Of a DNA stretch of 64,000 nucleotides, positions 27,603-35,740 are shown piece by piece (position 1 is the stretch's first letter; each line of letters opens with the position of its first letter). A program made the translations under genes and the position numbers. Under the pieces are notes generated by a model. That model had not been told where the DNA came from. It did not search any database and worked only from the letters and a program-made list of their open reading frames with translations. Source of the DNA: Dictyostelium discoideum (Eukaryota); assembly GCA_000004695.1 (NCBI GenBank), contig CM000151.3:6592001-6656000 (forward strand), given 5' to 3'.

Positions 27603-28779
27603 TTAAGAATATAAACCAGCTTTCATAACACATTGAGTGAAAATAATATCTTTTACAGCTTCAAAAACGACACGAATATTATTTGTATCGGTGGCACAAG
27701 TGATATGAGAATAGATTGCTTTTTGTTCGGTTTTATTGATTTGCCAGAAACGTTCTTTGATATAGTTTGAGGCTCTTTCGTAATCTCTACCACCTTTATA
27801 TTCTGGGAAAGTTTCAGAGAGATCAACATGTTTGATTTTCTCTCTGAATAAATCAGATTTGTTTAAGAATAAAATGATTGGAGTATTTACAAACCAACTA
27901 TTGCAAACATCACTGAATACACGTAAACTTTCCAACATACGATTGGTTGAATTATCTTCATACAATAATAAATCATATTCGGACAAGGCAACACAAAATA
28001 CAACTGCTGTAACATCATCGAAACATGATAACCATTTCTTTCTTTCAGAACGTTGACCACCAACATCTACTAATCTAAATTTGATTTTACCAATTTCAAA
28101 GTTTGTTTCATGAACACCTCTTGTCATAACACGAGTATGTAAAATATCTTGATCAGTTGGAATATAAACTGGTGATGTCATACGATCTATACTATCAAAG
28201 AAATATGGAGCTGAATCTGGTAATGTACTAAATTCATTTGCTCTTCTCATTGCCTGTTTGACACCTGGGTCTGTCCATAAGGCTTTTATCTTTTTACCTT
28301 GATCTTCATTTAATTCTCCCCAACAATCTGTAACAATTGATGCTTGTAATGATGTTAATTCTTTAATCATAACTGCTGCGTCCTAAAAAAATAAAAAATA
28401 ATAAAAAATAAATAAATAATAATATGTTAATATATGTACATTTTTATTTTTATTTTTTATTATTTTTTTTTTTTTTTTTACTTACTGAATTACTTGGGTC
28501 AATTGTCATTCCAAGTCTTCCCATTCCATCCAATAATACTCTCATATTATCAAGAATATTTCTTGTAATAATTGGTTTAAATTCTTTTCTTTCTTCATTA
28601 CTGTAACCACTTTGATGAATAATTTTCATTTGTTTTGAAATTGTTGATTTACCAGATTCACCAGCACCAAGTAATAATAATTTAACTTCATTATGTTTCT
28701 TTTTTCTTTCTTTTTCAATAGATAAATTAATATCAGTATTGGTTTTTTCTCCTTCCATTGATGATGCACAAATACCCAT
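27603..28779 (-). CDS. gpaB: heterotrimeric G protein alpha subunit (357 aa); two exons, complement join(27603..28382, 28486..28779)
   Basis: Exon 1 is MGICASSMEGEK...LLLLGAGESGKSTISKQMKIIH, with a myristoylation Gly2 and the P-loop. The donor is TCA|GTAAGT and there is a 103-nt intron. Exon 2 carries the switch/NKxD/TCAT motifs (DVGGQRSERKKW, FLNKSDLF, TCATDT). The N-terminus and the 357-aa length match my recollection of Dictyostelium Galpha2. The Galpha call is firm. The paralog assignment rests on memory only. Confidence 0.75.
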
Positions 28780-28908
28780 TTTTTAAGTTTTTTTTCTTTA
28801 TTTTATATAATTATATATATATATATAGTTTTATAAATAAATATTAAGTGTGTGTGTTAAGTTATTAATGATACAAGTTTTGTTTAATGTGTGGTTTGGG
28901 TGCGGTTT

Positions 28909-28952
<44 letters not shown>

Positions 28953-29285
28953 TTATTTTCCGATTTAAAAAATATATTTTAAAATTTTAAAAATAAAAAT
29001 TATATTATTTGATATATGTATAAAAAAAAAAAATTAAATAAAATAAGGATACTGTTGAAAACAAAAACAAATGTTGTGTAATTGGATAGTGTTTATGTGT
29101 TTACTACTACTATTACAAACAAATTATAAAATAAATATATGTATATTATGGTGTTTAGAGTGGTTAATTATAAATTTAGATTGAAAAATTCAATTTAAAA
29201 ATAAAAAAAAGTTAAAAATAAAAAAAAAAAAATAAAAATAAAAATTTTAAAATAATAAAAAATTTAAAAAAAGATATTGTAAAGT

Positions 29286-29345
29286 GGTAAGTGTGTGTGT
29301 GTGTGGGTTGGTGTTATAAAAATTGATGTGTGGGGGTGTGCTTGA
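29286..29345. promoter_or_regulatory. GT/G-rich G-box-like elements (candidate GBF-type binding sites) about 0.5 kb upstream of the Galpha gene
   Basis: GTGTGTGTGTGTGTGGGTTGGTGTT ... GATGTGTGGGGGTGTG sits inside otherwise >90% AT DNA. It resembles Dictyostelium G-box/CA-rich developmental promoter elements. Confidence 0.3.
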
Positions 29346-30439
29346 TTATGTAGGGTTTTTTTTTTTTTTTTTTTTTTTTGAAATAAAAAGACTAAAAATA
29401 CGACGATATAATATTGATTGATAGAAATGTAGGGTGGGTTTTAAAAAAAAAAATTATATTTTTTTTTTGATTTTTTTTTTTTTGATTTTTTTTTTTTTTT
29501 TTTTTTGTGTAGATATGATTTGAGAATAATAATCAAAATATTAAAAAAAATAAAAATAAAAATAAAAATGAGGGAAGGGGGTGGGGTGGTTAGTACTAAA
29601 TTAAAGTATTTGATAGATATTTTAAAAATAAAAAAAATAAAATATAAAAAATTTTTTTACATACATGATTATGATATTGTTATTGTTTTCTTTTTAAAAT
29701 GAAGCTTTATATATTGAATGTTGCTTGAGAAATCTAAAAAAAAAAAAAGAAATAATTTTAAAAAAAAATAATAATAATTAGCTTTTAAATATTTATAATT
29801 AAAATTAATGAATAAATAAAATAAAATATAAAAAAAAAAAAACAAAAAGAAAAAAAAAAAAAAAGGATTAACCAAAAGGTTTTTTTTTTAAATTTTTTTT
29901 TTCTTTTTTATATTCAATAAAAATCTCGTTTGGTTCATTTATTAATTTTTTTATTTTTTTTATTTTTATTTTTTTTTTTTTTTTTTTACAAAATCACAAT
30001 ATCTTTCGAGATAGAATGATTTTTTTTTTTTTTTTTTTTTTTTTTGTAATTTTGTGTGCAAAAATGGATTGAATGATTGGGATGATGAGAAAAAAAAAAA
30101 AAATGAATGAAAGTGAAAAAAAAAACAAAAAAAAAAAAAGAAAATATGTTAAACAACAGATTATAATAGAGAGAAAGAAAGAAAATATATAAAAAAAAAA
30201 AAAAAAAAAAATTAAAAAAATTAATAAAAAAAAAAAAAAAAGAAAAACTTTACATTATTATACAATGGTAAAATTACAGAAATTTTGAACAAAATAGTTT
30301 TTTTTTTTTTATGGTACAAAAAATTAATTATTAAATAATTATTTTTATAACTACTATTATTATTATATTATTACAATTTTTATTTGTTATTGTTAACTAA
30401 TTATTTTTTGGAATTGATTTGGTTTTTGTGTTTTTGAAA

Positions 30440-30470
<31 letters not shown>

Positions 30471-30571
30471 ATTTTATTTTTTTTTTTTTTATTTTATTAT
30501 TATTATTATTTTTATTTTTTTTATTTTTTTTTTTTTAATTAAATGATAAACTCAAGAGAATGAGAATTTTT

Positions 30572-30605
<34 letters not shown>

Positions 30606-32650: not shown

Positions 32651-32685
32651 TTTTTTTATTTTTATTTTTATTTTTATTAATAAAA

Positions 32686-32726
<41 letters not shown>

Positions 32727-33324
32727 AAATATCCAAAAACCCTTTTCCAAAAATTTTTATCGCTTTTACAAAACAATTCTCTGAAAAAAAAAAAAATAAA
32801 AAAAAAAATAAAAAAAAATGAAAAATAAAAAAAAAAAAAAAGGTGAAAATATTTCGCTATCAAATGAGATTGGTTTCCAAACGAGTGGGTTTTTTTGATT
32901 GTCGATTGTATGAAAAATATTCAAACAAAATATATAAATAATTTTTTAAAAAGATTTGTTTGCAGTTTAATTATTTGTTGGTTGGGTGGTGAAATTATTA
33001 TTATTATTTTTTATTATTTTTTTTTTTTTATTGGGTTTCCAAAAGGTTGATTTGGATTAAAACTTACTGATTGTATAATCGATTTGAATTTAATATTTTT
33101 TATTATTTTTTTTTATTAATTTTATTAAAAAATTTAATAAAATGTTGATTGATTAGATATTAAAGTTTCAAAGATTTTTTTTTTGTTGAAATATTATTGG
33201 TGAAAAAAATAATTAATGTTGAAAAATGGCTTTCTTTAATTAAAAAAACTATTTGATTGCTTTCTATAAATTTTTTATAGTTTGTATTGTATAATGAATG
33301 ATTATTATTAAAATGAAATTGAGG

Positions 33325-33364
<40 letters not shown>

Positions 33365-33387
33365 AAAAAGAAAAAAAAGAAAAAGAG

Positions 33388-33424
<37 letters not shown>

Positions 33425-34696
33425 TTTCGAATGTTTGACTTTGGACACATTTTTTTTATTAATATCTCTATAAAAGTGAAAGCCGTGGTTTATAATAATG
33501 AGTTTCTTTTTTTTTGATTGGTGGTCTAATTTTAACCACATTTAAAAATTGTCTCAAGTTTGTTATTTTATTTTTTTTTAATTTTTTTTTTTTTTTTTTT
33601 TTAACAATTTAAATCAATCGTGTTTCTACCAAAAATAGCCACCAGTTCATTTATAACAAAATCACTTCGGGTTTTTTCAATTGATTTTTTTTTTTAATTT
33701 TATTTATTTTAAATTATTTTTAATGATTTTTTTTTTTTTTGTGTCCTTCAACATTTTGAAAGCGGCGAAAGAGCGATAAACGTCACAAATTCTCAGAACA
33801 ATGCAAATTCAAAATTGGTGGATGTTTATTTTAATTTTTTTTTATTTTTTTTCTTTTTTTTTTATTTTTTTATTTTTTATTTTTTTTTGTGTTAGTAAAT
33901 GAAGAGAGTAAATTCAAATAAAATAAAATAGTTAAAATTAAAAGAAAAAAAAAAAAAAAAAATATTTACTTTTTTTTTTTTTTTGCTCTCTTACCAAAAA
34001 AACCTAGCAAAACAATAAAAAAAAAAAAAAAAAAATTAAAATGACCCAAATAAAATAATTGATTGTGTTTAAATTTTTCTTTTTTTTATTGTTTATTAAA
34101 ATTTCTCAATATAGAGTTATTAAATTCATGATGAAATTAACAATATAACTACTTCCATGAAATTAAATGAATTCGTAATACAGCTATTAAACCAGATTAT
34201 AGTTGTAATTTTACAGGTTCATTATCAATTGCTCTAAAAATAAATCAAGATTTGTTTTACTATTTCCATCATCAGATGTTTTGAGTTAAAATATTTCCAA
34301 AATTGTATCCTTTTTTAAATCACTAATGAAGATAGTTTTACCAATGCACTAACAACATGGCCATTAAATTAAATCCAATGTATAAAATGAGAAGGTGAAA
34401 AATAAAATTTATAATAGATATGATAATTTTTTTTTGTAAAAAAATCTTGATCTATTTTTTTTTTTTCCACAAAAATTTATACCAAAAAAGGTTTTTTATT
34501 TATTTGTGACATATTTTTTTATACAAACCTTAAAAAAAAATGAAAAAAAATATATTTTTCATTTTTTTTTTTTTTTTTTTTAACAACAATTTAATTATAT
34601 TTTTATTATGAATTTAGTATAGATAAATAGGACGCTCAAAAATATAAAAAATGAAATAAAAAATAAAAAAAATGTAATAAAATGATTAAAAATTCT

Positions 34697-34737
<41 letters not shown>

Positions 34738-35740
34738 GAAAATTTAATTATTTATCATTAATTTTTTATAAATGTATTTTTTTATTTGAAGAAAAATTGG
34801 AGGGAATATTCTTTAAATAAAAAAAATAGATACTAAAAAAAATAAAATTGATTTTATTGGATTGCCATGTGTAAGGCTTCGGTGTTTTATTAATATTTGT
34901 TCATTAGAAAAAAAAATAAATAAAAATATAAATAAAAATAAAAAAAAATTTTAAATTCTCCTGTTTAATTACAATAAATAATCCATTCTTCTATATTAAT
35001 TTTATTATTAAAAAAAAAAAAAAAAAAATAAAATAAAAACTAAAATTATAAAATTTAATTTAAGTTAAAAAATCAATATCGCTTTTTGTTTTTATAAAAA
35101 AATTAAAATTTTAAAATATATTTTTTTTAAAAAAAAAGAAAGTAAAACGAAAAGTAGAACTAATTTTAAAAATAAAAAAAAAAAATTATAAATTTTTAAA
35201 ATAAAATATCTTATTTATTTAAGTTGCCACATCATATTTTTTATAAAAAAAAATAAAAAAATAAAAAAACTAAAACAATCATCTTTCAAATTCTAAAAAG
35301 AATAGTGTGACATCACAGAAAAAAAAAAAAATTAAAAAAACTAAAAAAAAACTCTCGAACCAGAAGATGAATTCGTAAAATTAAAATATCTTTAATGATT
35401 TTTTTTTCATATGAAAATAATTTTAAAGGAATTATTTTTTTTTTTTTTTTTTTTTTTTTATTGGCCTTTAATAATTTGAATTAAAAAAATAAAAAAAAAA
35501 ATTCCAAAAAAATAAATTCTAAAAAAAATCTAAAAACTATTAATCATTATAAAAAATCAAGATATTTAGAAAAAAAAATTAAAAAAAAAACTATTTTTTT
35601 TTTTTTTTTTTTTTTTCGTCCATTGATATAAAAAACAATTCATTCTGTTTAAACATAAATTAGCTATTTAAAAAATAAATAAAATTTTAAAACAAATATA
35701 TATATAATAAATAAAAACAAAAAAAAAAAAAAAAAAAAAA

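Follow-up and report, generated by a model that had tools for sequence, protein, structure and literature searches.

The question raised by this stretch of Dictyostelium discoideum chromosome 2 is why a G-protein alpha gene should begin so far from its neighbour. From its start codon to the next gene at 35741 there are 6,961 bp with a GC content of 15.8%, as against a mean intergenic length of ~700 bp in D. discoideum (PMC5295588), and within the window, the whole 64-kb stretch of DNA analysed here (AX4 chr2:6,592,001-6,656,000), low-GC runs longer than 2.1 kb are found in this interval alone. The gap is indeed as exceptional as the first-pass annotation had claimed. We give a probability of about 0.7 to a composite reading, namely that the interval consists of the gpaB control region and leader (~4.6 kb), the relic of a hydrolase gene and the promoter of the neighbouring gene. 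From the 7 kb that had been credited to the upstream region of gpaB, ~4.6 kb would then remain with that gene, whereas ~1.7 kb would represent a dead gene with its flanks and ~0.6 kb the promoter of the neighbour.

The minus-strand gene is D. discoideum gpaB (Galpha2, DDB_G0276267), located at AX4 chr2:6,619,603-6,620,779; its coordinates equal those of DDB_G0276267 and the chromosomal placement is exact. The product of 357 aa is 100% identical to EAL69280.1 (G-protein subunit alpha 2, D. discoideum AX4), compared with ~51% for the Galpha1 cluster, so that the original assignment to Galpha2, in preference to the other paralogues, stands; the product matches PF00503 (G-alpha) over residues 12-345 (E 1.4e-130), that is, as a full-length domain. 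The gene structure agrees with a spliced RNA contig (L006, from SRR24091725) in which 28920-28485 is joined to 28382-27540.

28486 to 28779, minus strand: gpaB exon 1, 98 codons, beginning MGICASS, with the start codon at 28779
28383 to 28485, minus strand: gpaB intron, 103 nt, GTAAGT...TAG, missing from cDNA contig L006
27603 to 28382, minus strand: gpaB exon 2, 259 codons and the stop (at 27603), 100% identical in L006

The order of a CfaA-like gene, a hydrolase gene, 4.6-5.3 kb without a called gene, and gpaB is shared by D. firmibasis, D. citrinum, D. dimigraforme and D. cf. discoideum. Throughout the close relatives the region corresponding to 28780-~33400 is alignable in colinear fashion and free of genes (4.6-5.3 kb), and we suggest that these ~4.6 kb would be gpaB's own control region and leader, older than the D. 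discoideum group. Mean conservation is 0.84-0.91 over 28780-30980, 0.63-0.85 from there to 33780 and 0.38-0.63 in the relic zone. Other intergenic regions of the same loci reach 0.44-0.89, and 30980-33780 is conserved no more than these, so conservation does not establish constraint on the distal half.

The chance that the interval hides an unannotated protein-coding gene appears vanishingly small. Its length is unusual, and it contains an ORF of 148 aa (32417-32863, minus strand) as well as several of 40-96 aa; however, the ORFs of at least 40 aa are all either of low complexity (poly-K/F/N) or interrupted by frameshifts or stops in the majority of eight relatives, and a conserved one was not found among them, in agreement with the earlier view that the 7 kb contain no credible ORF. 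Moreover, nine related genomes have been annotated independently, none with a call in the matching 4.6-5.3 kb, and such a gene is absent from the AX4 neighbour tables. A tRNA search of the interval gave no match, and the Rfam 15 covariance models gave nothing over 28700-35800, either at the gathering threshold or at E<=1.

The distal part of the interval is occupied by the following features.

34094 to 34385, minus strand: relic of an alpha/beta-hydrolase gene, a unitary pseudogene fragment by nhmmer and tblastn homology
35741 to 36430, plus strand: DDB_G0276277, the next gene, of the CfaA/B/C family (match to PF11912 CfaA_B_C)

We identify 34094-34385, from its homology, as a unitary pseudogene of an alpha/beta-hydrolase gene (families PF00561/PF12146/PF12697). 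Two nhmmer matches (E 3.2e-17 and 7e-7) correspond to HMM positions 448-641 and 819-907 of ~975, and tblastn returns colinear pieces in alternating frames (E 1.6e-7). Positions 1-447, 642-818 and 908-975 of the HMM are missing, the remainder carries a 7-nt deletion and no ORF is present. Identical 7-nt and 3-nt deletions are observed in the window and in two further loci (L002 and L003), while five loci with the same flanks (L001, L004, L008, L009 and L010) retain an intact syntenic hydrolase gene, and the gene is intact at this spot in the four species named above. A D. discoideum entry was not found in the orthologue tier of the hydrolase (76-100%); the next tier (61-62%) includes paralogues. 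As in other unitary pseudogenes, which arise by lineage-specific loss in place, the syntenic position is kept and the orthologue is intact in sister species, and a clade-shared frameshift is accompanied by different later deletions in different strains; the relic differs in that just ~290 of ~975 nt are still recognisable. A hydrolase gene at ~33400-35100 would have lost its function through a frameshift in the D. discoideum lineage, after which deletions wore it down, and its decay would have added ~2 kb to the apparent desert. From ~35100 onwards, the third part of the interval holds the conserved promoter of DDB_G0276277 (~35130-35740).

The relic coincides with the patch of normal-complexity sequence (34100-34420) that the first-pass annotation had proposed to be an untranslated 5' exon or an ncRNA: the patch is real, but it is a hydrolase relic. 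That gpaB has an untranslated 5' exon here, or that the patch is a separate ncRNA gene, is in our estimation very improbable, even though the patch is more complex than its surroundings (GC 23-26%), lies in the interval on the side of gpaB and has a precedent in the distal non-coding first exons of D. discoideum acaA (PMC2952602). Rather, the patch is homologous, in the orientation of gpaB, to the middle and 3' parts of the hydrolase coding sequence, and as a primary identity the exon or ncRNA is contradicted by these nhmmer and tblastn matches. Conservation in the interval is lowest here (0.36-0.69), and the patch falls outside the domain of strand skew and G blocks, which stops near 33400, and is covered by neither lncRNA models nor Rfam matches.

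Within the proximal 4.6 kb, the part adjoining the start codon is transcribed.

28780 to 29943, minus strand: gpaB 5' leader, transcribed over at least 1,164 nt, from sense RNA-seq coverage, with the first 141 nt supported by cDNA

The 5' end of L006 is at 28920, 141 nt upstream of the gpaB ATG (-141). Of the 2,957 nt of chr2:6618987-6621943 (window 26987-29943), all except 25 have sense-read coverage (PMC5295588 File S7), as derived from a supplementary table rather than counted on the reads themselves. Position 29943 adjoins a T-run and represents a mappability edge rather than a mapped 5' end. The sense strand of 28780-29661 (882 nt) contains no ATG, as opposed to 12 on the antisense strand; the AUG-free stretch measures 823-882 nt in seven relatives. 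In species further removed it measures 677, 371 and 366 nt, and the ATG-free upstream stretch of other genes measures 24-641 nt. Since the 882 nt include just 22 G, the absence of ATG is no more than mildly unexpected: P is 0.015 by mononucleotide shuffling and 0.085 under a first-order Markov model. Depletion of G on the sense strand entails depletion of AUG, which would keep the leader translatable. Matches resembling core promoters (TATA/poly-T) are observed at ~29757, 31508 and 33239, although they are weak evidence in DNA this rich in A and T.

Together, the sense reads to at least 1,164 nt and the conserved AUG-free leader of ~850 nt bear out the earlier suggestion of a long and complex upstream transcription unit. 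We suggest that transcription of the gene strand extends upstream of the ATG by 1.16 kb or more, probably from several start sites, which would generate gpaB mRNAs that differ in leader length. Galpha2 reportedly has several developmentally distinct promoters and a complex promoter organisation, and that gpaB has several distinct promoters is what we infer. A likeness is offered by acaA, which is also an aggregation-stage signalling gene with a multi-kb upstream intergenic region, and where three promoters across 4 kb of intergenic DNA are stage- and cell-type-specific and give one and the same protein (PMC2952602). The three acaA start sites were mapped by RACE, with non-coding first exons that splice onto one shared exon (PMC2952602), whereas the gpaB leader is known from one cDNA contig and from continuous sense coverage that reaches -1.16 kb or further.

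The proximal 4.6 kb are further distinguished by a strand-asymmetric composition and by G/GT-rich blocks, which are arranged in four clusters.

28780 to 33400, no strand assigned: strand-asymmetric upstream domain, 515 G versus 224 C on the plus strand
28849 to 28894, plus strand: G/GT cluster A, -70 to -115, within the cDNA-supported 5' UTR, conserved in relatives
29292 to 29589, plus strand: G/GT cluster B, -513 to -810, with blocks at 29292-29308, 29327-29339, 29433-29439 and 29578-29589
30619 to 31151, plus strand: G/GT cluster C, -1840 to -2370, with blocks at 30619-30625, 30659-30669, 30759-30782, 30923-30929 and 31145-31151
31978 to 32989, plus strand: G/GT cluster D, -3200 to -4210, its positions compared with relatives, with blocks at 31978-31984, 32321-32341, 32588-32596 and 32983-32989

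Between 28849 and 32989, the plus strand carries 16 KGKGKGK blocks (of 31 on that strand in the window) and the minus strand 1. Shuffling the region by dinucleotides yields 1.6 +/- 1.2 blocks, with a maximum of 7 in 1000 (Poisson P 5e-10). The four G/GT islands noticed previously are all present at the coordinates given for them, the first two in cluster B and the other two in cluster C, and belong to this larger set of 16; they are non-random (16 versus 1.6 expected), and their positions recur in relatives including D. purpureum, which has counterparts of the cluster B blocks at -451, -512 and -551 and of the cluster C blocks at -1914 and -1940. Cluster C is situated within the most conserved blocks (30629-30892, conservation 0.95-0.96).

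The GBF element has the sequence (T/G)G(T/G)G(T/G)G(T/G) and is often closely paired (PMC2257962). All 16 blocks conform to it, with pairs at 29292-29339, 30619-30669 and 30759-30782, and as judged by sequence they may bind GBF. We infer that the clusters, which are CA/C-rich on the sense strand and lie at ~-0.1, -0.5 to -0.8, -1.8 to -2.4 and -3.2 to -4.2 kb, could act as developmental enhancer modules of gpaB. Post-aggregative GBF response elements such as those of the sigN promoters (PMC2257962) are of the same sequence class and likewise occur as close pairs in AT-rich promoters; in contrast, the blocks of gpaB number 16 over 4.1 kb, have nearly all one orientation and in several cases lie inside the leader. 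Against the enhancer reading, GBF drives mainly post-aggregative genes, whereas the main peak of gpaB mRNA is at aggregation (PMC12849267). Clusters A and B also count against it, as both fall within transcribed leader rather than upstream of it, and the near-total orientation bias of the blocks (16/17) is unusual for ordinary transcription-factor sites.

The G:C ratio on the plus strand is 2.3:1, making the sense strand of gpaB rich in C and poor in G, and the asymmetry ends sharply near 33400. It stays when the G blocks are masked (436 G versus 220 C, P 2e-17) and is found in all relatives out to ~-4.5 kb; the skew value upstream of gpaB is +0.57, compared with -0.23 to +0.33 upstream of other genes. 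The blocks and the skew might therefore be features of strand-specific RNA or transcription rather than GBF enhancers, either as C-rich motifs with avoidance of G and AUG in long leaders starting up to -4.5 kb, or as a mutational skew left by persistent plus-strand (lncRNA) transcription. The orientation bias, the persistence of the skew after masking and its retention over ~4.5 kb in all relatives, and the location of clusters A and B all favour such an origin, as do the scarcity of sense ATGs across the whole domain (~18 versus ~75 antisense) and the presence of both published lncRNAs on the G-rich strand. Nevertheless, we consider it possible but unlikely: the blocks are discrete, ~10x over-represented even relative to shuffles that preserve the skewed composition, and fit a defined transcription-factor element, while the documented sense transcript reaches only 29943 and the lncRNA models span only 1.8 of the 4.6 kb. 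Quite unlikely, in our view, is the stronger form in which the 4.6-kb domain is a strand-specific device, with distal promoters to ~-4.5 kb and very long AUG-poor leaders that regulate gpaB.

The label of a gene desert is apt as far as credible ORFs are concerned, but two plus-strand lncRNAs have been published within the interval.

30270 to 31267, plus strand: lncRNA DDB_G3971957 (chr2:6622270-6623267; PMC5295588 Files S4 and S6)
31806 to 32591, plus strand: lncRNA DDB_G3973587 (chr2:6623806-6624591; PMC5295588 Files S4 and S6)

Both models are included in the set of 621 intergenic lncRNAs of Rosengarten et al. 2017 (PMC5295588) and are single-exon, 0.8-1.0 kb long and of ~17% GC; they stand out from the rest of the set only by their place within a key developmental gene's control region. 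The 3' end of DDB_G3971957 is at the start of a plus-strand poly-A tract and DDB_G3973587 begins 2 nt past a long plus-strand poly-T tract (31776-31803), which fits the transcript-end and transcription-start rules, respectively, of PMC3371697. These canonical signals, the published models themselves and their overlap with conserved blocks could be taken to mean that what functions in the distal region is this pair of lncRNAs, which would act on gpaB in cis through promoter-upstream or divergent transcription. We regard this as decidedly unlikely, as their Spearman correlations with gpaB are 0.07 and 0.12, low abundance is the general rule in this set, a structure or family match was not found with Rfam, and conservation there is ordinary for intergenic DNA. 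Within the composite reading of the interval, the two would be low-level transcripts running opposite to gpaB through its distal control region.

Much of this locus is already known, since gpaB is annotated, the lncRNA models in the interval are published and a long upstream stretch is ordinary in kind; the hydrolase relic and the AUG-free leader, C-rich on one strand, are small additions. Galpha2 links the cAMP receptor to chemotaxis and aggregation, and the timing of gpaB expression thus matters to the developmental biology of Dictyostelium. The analysis maps which 4.6 kb would be those of gpaB and locates the G-box clusters and the AUG-free leader, which is useful for the design of reporters and knock-ins, whereas the complex patch, as a dead hydrolase gene, can be disregarded in work on the gpaB promoter. 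Were the strand-specific device real, the translation, stability or promoter choice of gpaB would be under the control of the C-rich motifs of the RNA or of transcription across them. The relic itself provides a clean case of recent gene loss in place in the D. discoideum lineage.

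The minus-strand gene at one end of the long non-coding interval had been assigned to gpaB, which encodes Galpha2, and this assignment is borne out. Within the AT-rich window (23% GC) it comprises two exons:

28779-28486, minus strand, gpaB exon 1
28485-28383 (103 nt between the exons), minus strand, gpaB intron, GTAAGT...TAG
28382-27603, minus strand, gpaB exon 2

The 357-aa product contains a full G-alpha domain (PF00503, E 1.4e-130) and is 100% identical to EAL69280.1 ("G-protein subunit alpha 2 [Dictyostelium discoideum AX4]"), and because no Galpha paralogue matches better (the Galpha1 cluster reaches only ~51% identity), the gene call is upheld. 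With an offset of 6,592,000, the supplementary table of PMC5295588 places DDB_G0276267 (chr2:6619603-6620779, minus strand) exactly at 27603-28779 and DDB_G0276277 (chr2:6627741-6628430, plus strand) exactly at 35741-36430. An RNA contig assembled from run SRR24091725 (L006) joins 28920-28485 by splicing to 28382-27540, which confirms the intron and establishes a 5' UTR of at least 141 nt.

The gpaB locus was retrieved from nine related genomes through look-up of the identical protein and closely related ones:

L002, L003 and L005, further D. discoideum assemblies (species inferred from the protein-cluster listing)
L001, D. cf. discoideum
L010, and probably also L004, D. citrinum
L008, D. firmibasis
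L009, D. dimigraforme
L007, D. purpureum, with just 2.2 kb upstream before the scaffold ends
L011, Tieghemostelium lacteum

The Galpha2 protein is 100% identical in five of these assemblies (L001-L005, comprising D. discoideum, D. cf. discoideum and a D. citrinum-like genome). At the DNA level the gene, which occupies 10001-11200 of each locus, diverges by 2.3-5.3% with its intron counted, and its flanking sequence diverges by 7-23%, a pattern that indicates very strong purifying selection. The D. citrinum model KAN0036881.1 (1,755 aa; L010 10001-16292, GCA_054859325.1) merges gpaB with the downstream DUF7035/ComC_SSD gene; this fusion is probably an annotation artefact, since the two genes are separate in the other genomes.

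The interval between the gpaB start codon and the next gene (28780-35740) spans 6,961 bp at 15.8% GC, and the other low-GC runs in the window are all 2.1 kb or shorter. It is indeed very long for this compact genome, as the first-pass annotation had remarked, given an average D. discoideum intergenic region of ~700 bp (PMC5295588). The absence of a credible ORF over ~7 kb also holds, as the ORFs present are either of low complexity or disrupted by frameshifts or stops in most of the eight relatives compared; a hidden protein-coding gene was rejected because no ORF is conserved. Within the interval, a tRNA scan found none, an Rfam search gave no match even at a permissive E<=1, and a repeat search recovered nothing resembling a transposon, the families being poly-A/T low-complexity sequence only. 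On the same strand as gpaB, an ORF of 47 aa (30789-30932, minus) lies within the most conserved block (30779-30892); it is open in five of the eight relatives and carries a frameshift or stop in L002, L008 and L009, and it is most likely a by-product of high DNA conservation rather than coding.

Five relatives (L001, L004, L008, L009 and L010) carry an alpha/beta-hydrolase gene (PF00561/PF12146/PF12697; 318-332 aa) that lacks introns, shares the strand of gpaB and separates gpaB from the CfaA-like gene; 4.6-5.3 kb without a called gene then follow before the gpaB ATG. The long gene-free region is thus ancestral to the D. discoideum group; in T. lacteum the corresponding stretch is 2.3 kb. In the window, the patch of normal complexity at 34100-34420, previously proposed as an untranslated 5' exon or an ncRNA, instead matches this hydrolase. 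When the intact hydrolases were searched against the window by tblastn, colinear minus-strand pieces were found at 34345-34092 in alternating frames (aa 155-211, 213-242, 283-296 and 299-310; E 1.6e-7), and an nhmmer profile built on the five intact genes recovered two pieces:

34365-34198, minus strand, hydrolase relic, profile positions 448-641, E 3.2e-17
34175-34094, minus strand, hydrolase relic, profile positions 819-907, E 7e-7

The remainder of the gene has either been lost from the window or can no longer be recognised. With the D. firmibasis protein as query, a database search found orthologues of 76-100% identity in D. firmibasis, D. citrinum, D. dimigraforme and D. cf. discoideum alone, with paralogues at ~62% identity elsewhere. 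Judged by its sequence, the patch is therefore a unitary pseudogene relic, and it explains about 2 kb at the outer end of the interval. The window, L002 and L003 have a frameshifting 7-nt deletion and a 3-nt deletion in common, and L005 retains other fragments (positions 145-418 and 874-965), which points to a single early inactivation within the D. discoideum lineage, after which erosion proceeded independently. The death in place of this upstream neighbour makes the interval look longer still in D. discoideum.

The interval is colinear with its relatives in alignment. Per-base agreement with eight relatives averages 0.84-0.91 over 28780-30980, a level similar to that of the neighbouring DUF7035 coding region, and 0.63-0.85 over 30980-33780, which is ordinary against 0.44-0.89 for intergenic DNA of the same loci; it averages 0.38-0.63 over 33780-35000 and returns to ~0.8 over 35130-35740. 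Comparison of the upstream region by blastn with D. purpureum and T. lacteum gave only uninformative low-complexity matches, and these two species were compared by block positions, AUG counts and skew only.

The four G/GT-rich islands singled out earlier are real and non-random. They belong to a set of 16 plus-strand blocks matching the GBF-type motif KGKGKGK, where dinucleotide-preserving shuffles of the upstream region yield 1.6 +/- 1.2 (maximum 7 in 1000 shuffles); the plus strand of the whole 64-kb window carries 31, with none between 33000 and 37000. The orientation bias is 16:1, and the blocks form four clusters (distances from the gpaB ATG), the islands falling in B and C:

about -70/-115, plus strand, cluster A
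about -513/-810, plus strand, cluster B
about -1840/-2370, plus strand, cluster C
about -3200/-4210, plus strand, cluster D

The blocks are kept in relatives with varying GT-repeat length, and every relative has same-orientation blocks at similar distances, including D. purpureum (-165, -451, -512, -551, -1914 and -1940). The element GGGAAGGGGGTGGGGTGG (29572-29589, plus strand, the gpaB template strand) contains four consecutive G-runs and could therefore form a G-quadruplex on that strand; it is partly conserved among relatives. The main text of the GtaC ChIP paper makes no mention of gpaB.

Strand asymmetry extends beyond the blocks. The plus strand of 28780-33400 contains 515 G and 224 C, or 436 G and 220 C with the blocks masked (P 2e-17), and the skew stops sharply near 33400; the same skew reaches ~-4.5 kb in all relatives. 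At +0.57, the gpaB upstream skew exceeds that of every neighbouring gene (-0.23 to +0.33). File S7 of PMC5295588 contains an "antisense" model at chr2:6618987-6621943 (window 26987-29943) with 35,315 sense and 145 antisense reads, where the sense reads miss just 25 of 2,957 nt (the denominator being the model length); as it is absent from the final lncRNA list of that study, it probably reflects strand leakage of sense mRNA. By the sense coverage in this supplementary table, gpaB transcription takes in a minimum of 1,164 nt before the ATG and ~616 nt past the stop codon. Position 29943 abuts a T-run and is thus a mappability limit, not a mapped 5' end. Spliced, the covered span amounts to ~2.85 kb, compatible with a major Galpha2 mRNA of ~2.7 kb, with shorter ones of ~2.3 and 2.0 kb besides.

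The 882 nt upstream of the gpaB ATG hold no sense-strand ATG versus 12 antisense. Seven relatives keep this AUG-free span at 823-882 nt, and it is shorter in D. dimigraforme (677 nt), D. purpureum (371 nt) and T. lacteum (366 nt); upstream of ten neighbouring genes it ranges from 24 to 641 nt. Zero ATG is no more than mildly unlikely under G depletion alone (P 0.015-0.085), and the signal in the leader is the conserved G depletion itself. A TATA plus poly-T core-promoter scan returned a few candidates, such matches being too weak for placing start sites in AT-rich DNA. Clusters A and B lie within the transcribed leader, the 16:1 orientation is unusual among ordinary transcription-factor sites, and GBF is mainly post-aggregative while gpaB mRNA peaks at aggregation; these points count against reading the blocks as GBF-type developmental modules and leave room for a strand-specific role of the upstream domain, RNA-level or transcription-coupled, which we consider unlikely.

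Two published single-exon lncRNAs map to the interval:

30270-31267, plus strand, DDB_G3971957
31806-32591, plus strand, DDB_G3973587

DDB_G3973587 starts 2 nt past a long plus-strand poly-T tract and DDB_G3971957 ends at the beginning of a poly-A tract, in agreement with the rules for transcript starts and ends in Dictyostelium (PMC3371697); the correlation of their expression with that of gpaB is poor (0.07 and 0.12). Elsewhere, the window contains a further published lncRNA, DDB_G3970727 (40639-40936, minus; chr2:6632639-6632936), and tandem paralogues of the counting-factor-associated CfaA/B/C family at 35741-36430 and 36998-37732 (plus; PF11912, E 4e-40 and 2e-34), the second with a poly-Asn insertion, a pair kept in relatives. 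A non-LTR retrotransposon (ORFs 48650-49903 and 50284-53493, the latter with reverse transcriptase PF00078, E 8.6e-34) begins ~190 nt downstream of a tRNA-Arg(UCU) at 48387-48459 and, spanning 48387-53493 with it, looks like a tRNA-gene-targeted TRE-type element. An identical tRNA-Arg(UCU) is found at 55152-55224 (minus) and a tRNA-Leu(UAA) at 54491-54573 (minus).

Overall, the first-pass observation is confirmed and its interpretation supported in part. The promoter complexity of Galpha2 is said to have been published already (Carrel et al. 1994), and gpaB and both lncRNAs are already in the literature or annotation. The best-supported picture is that of a known developmental gene with what would be a large, old control region, in which transcription of a long AUG-free leader may begin at more than one site and clustered GBF-type elements would serve as developmental modules. 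We infer that the G/GT blocks may be GBF binding sites, that gpaB may have distinct promoters and that the distal 2.4 kb of the control region may be under constraint. The closest documented parallel is acaA, with three promoters within 4 kb (PMC2952602). The details that are new, namely the relic of the hydrolase gene, a conserved leader that is C-rich and free of AUG, and G-box clusters with a common orientation and conserved positions, are useful yet incremental.
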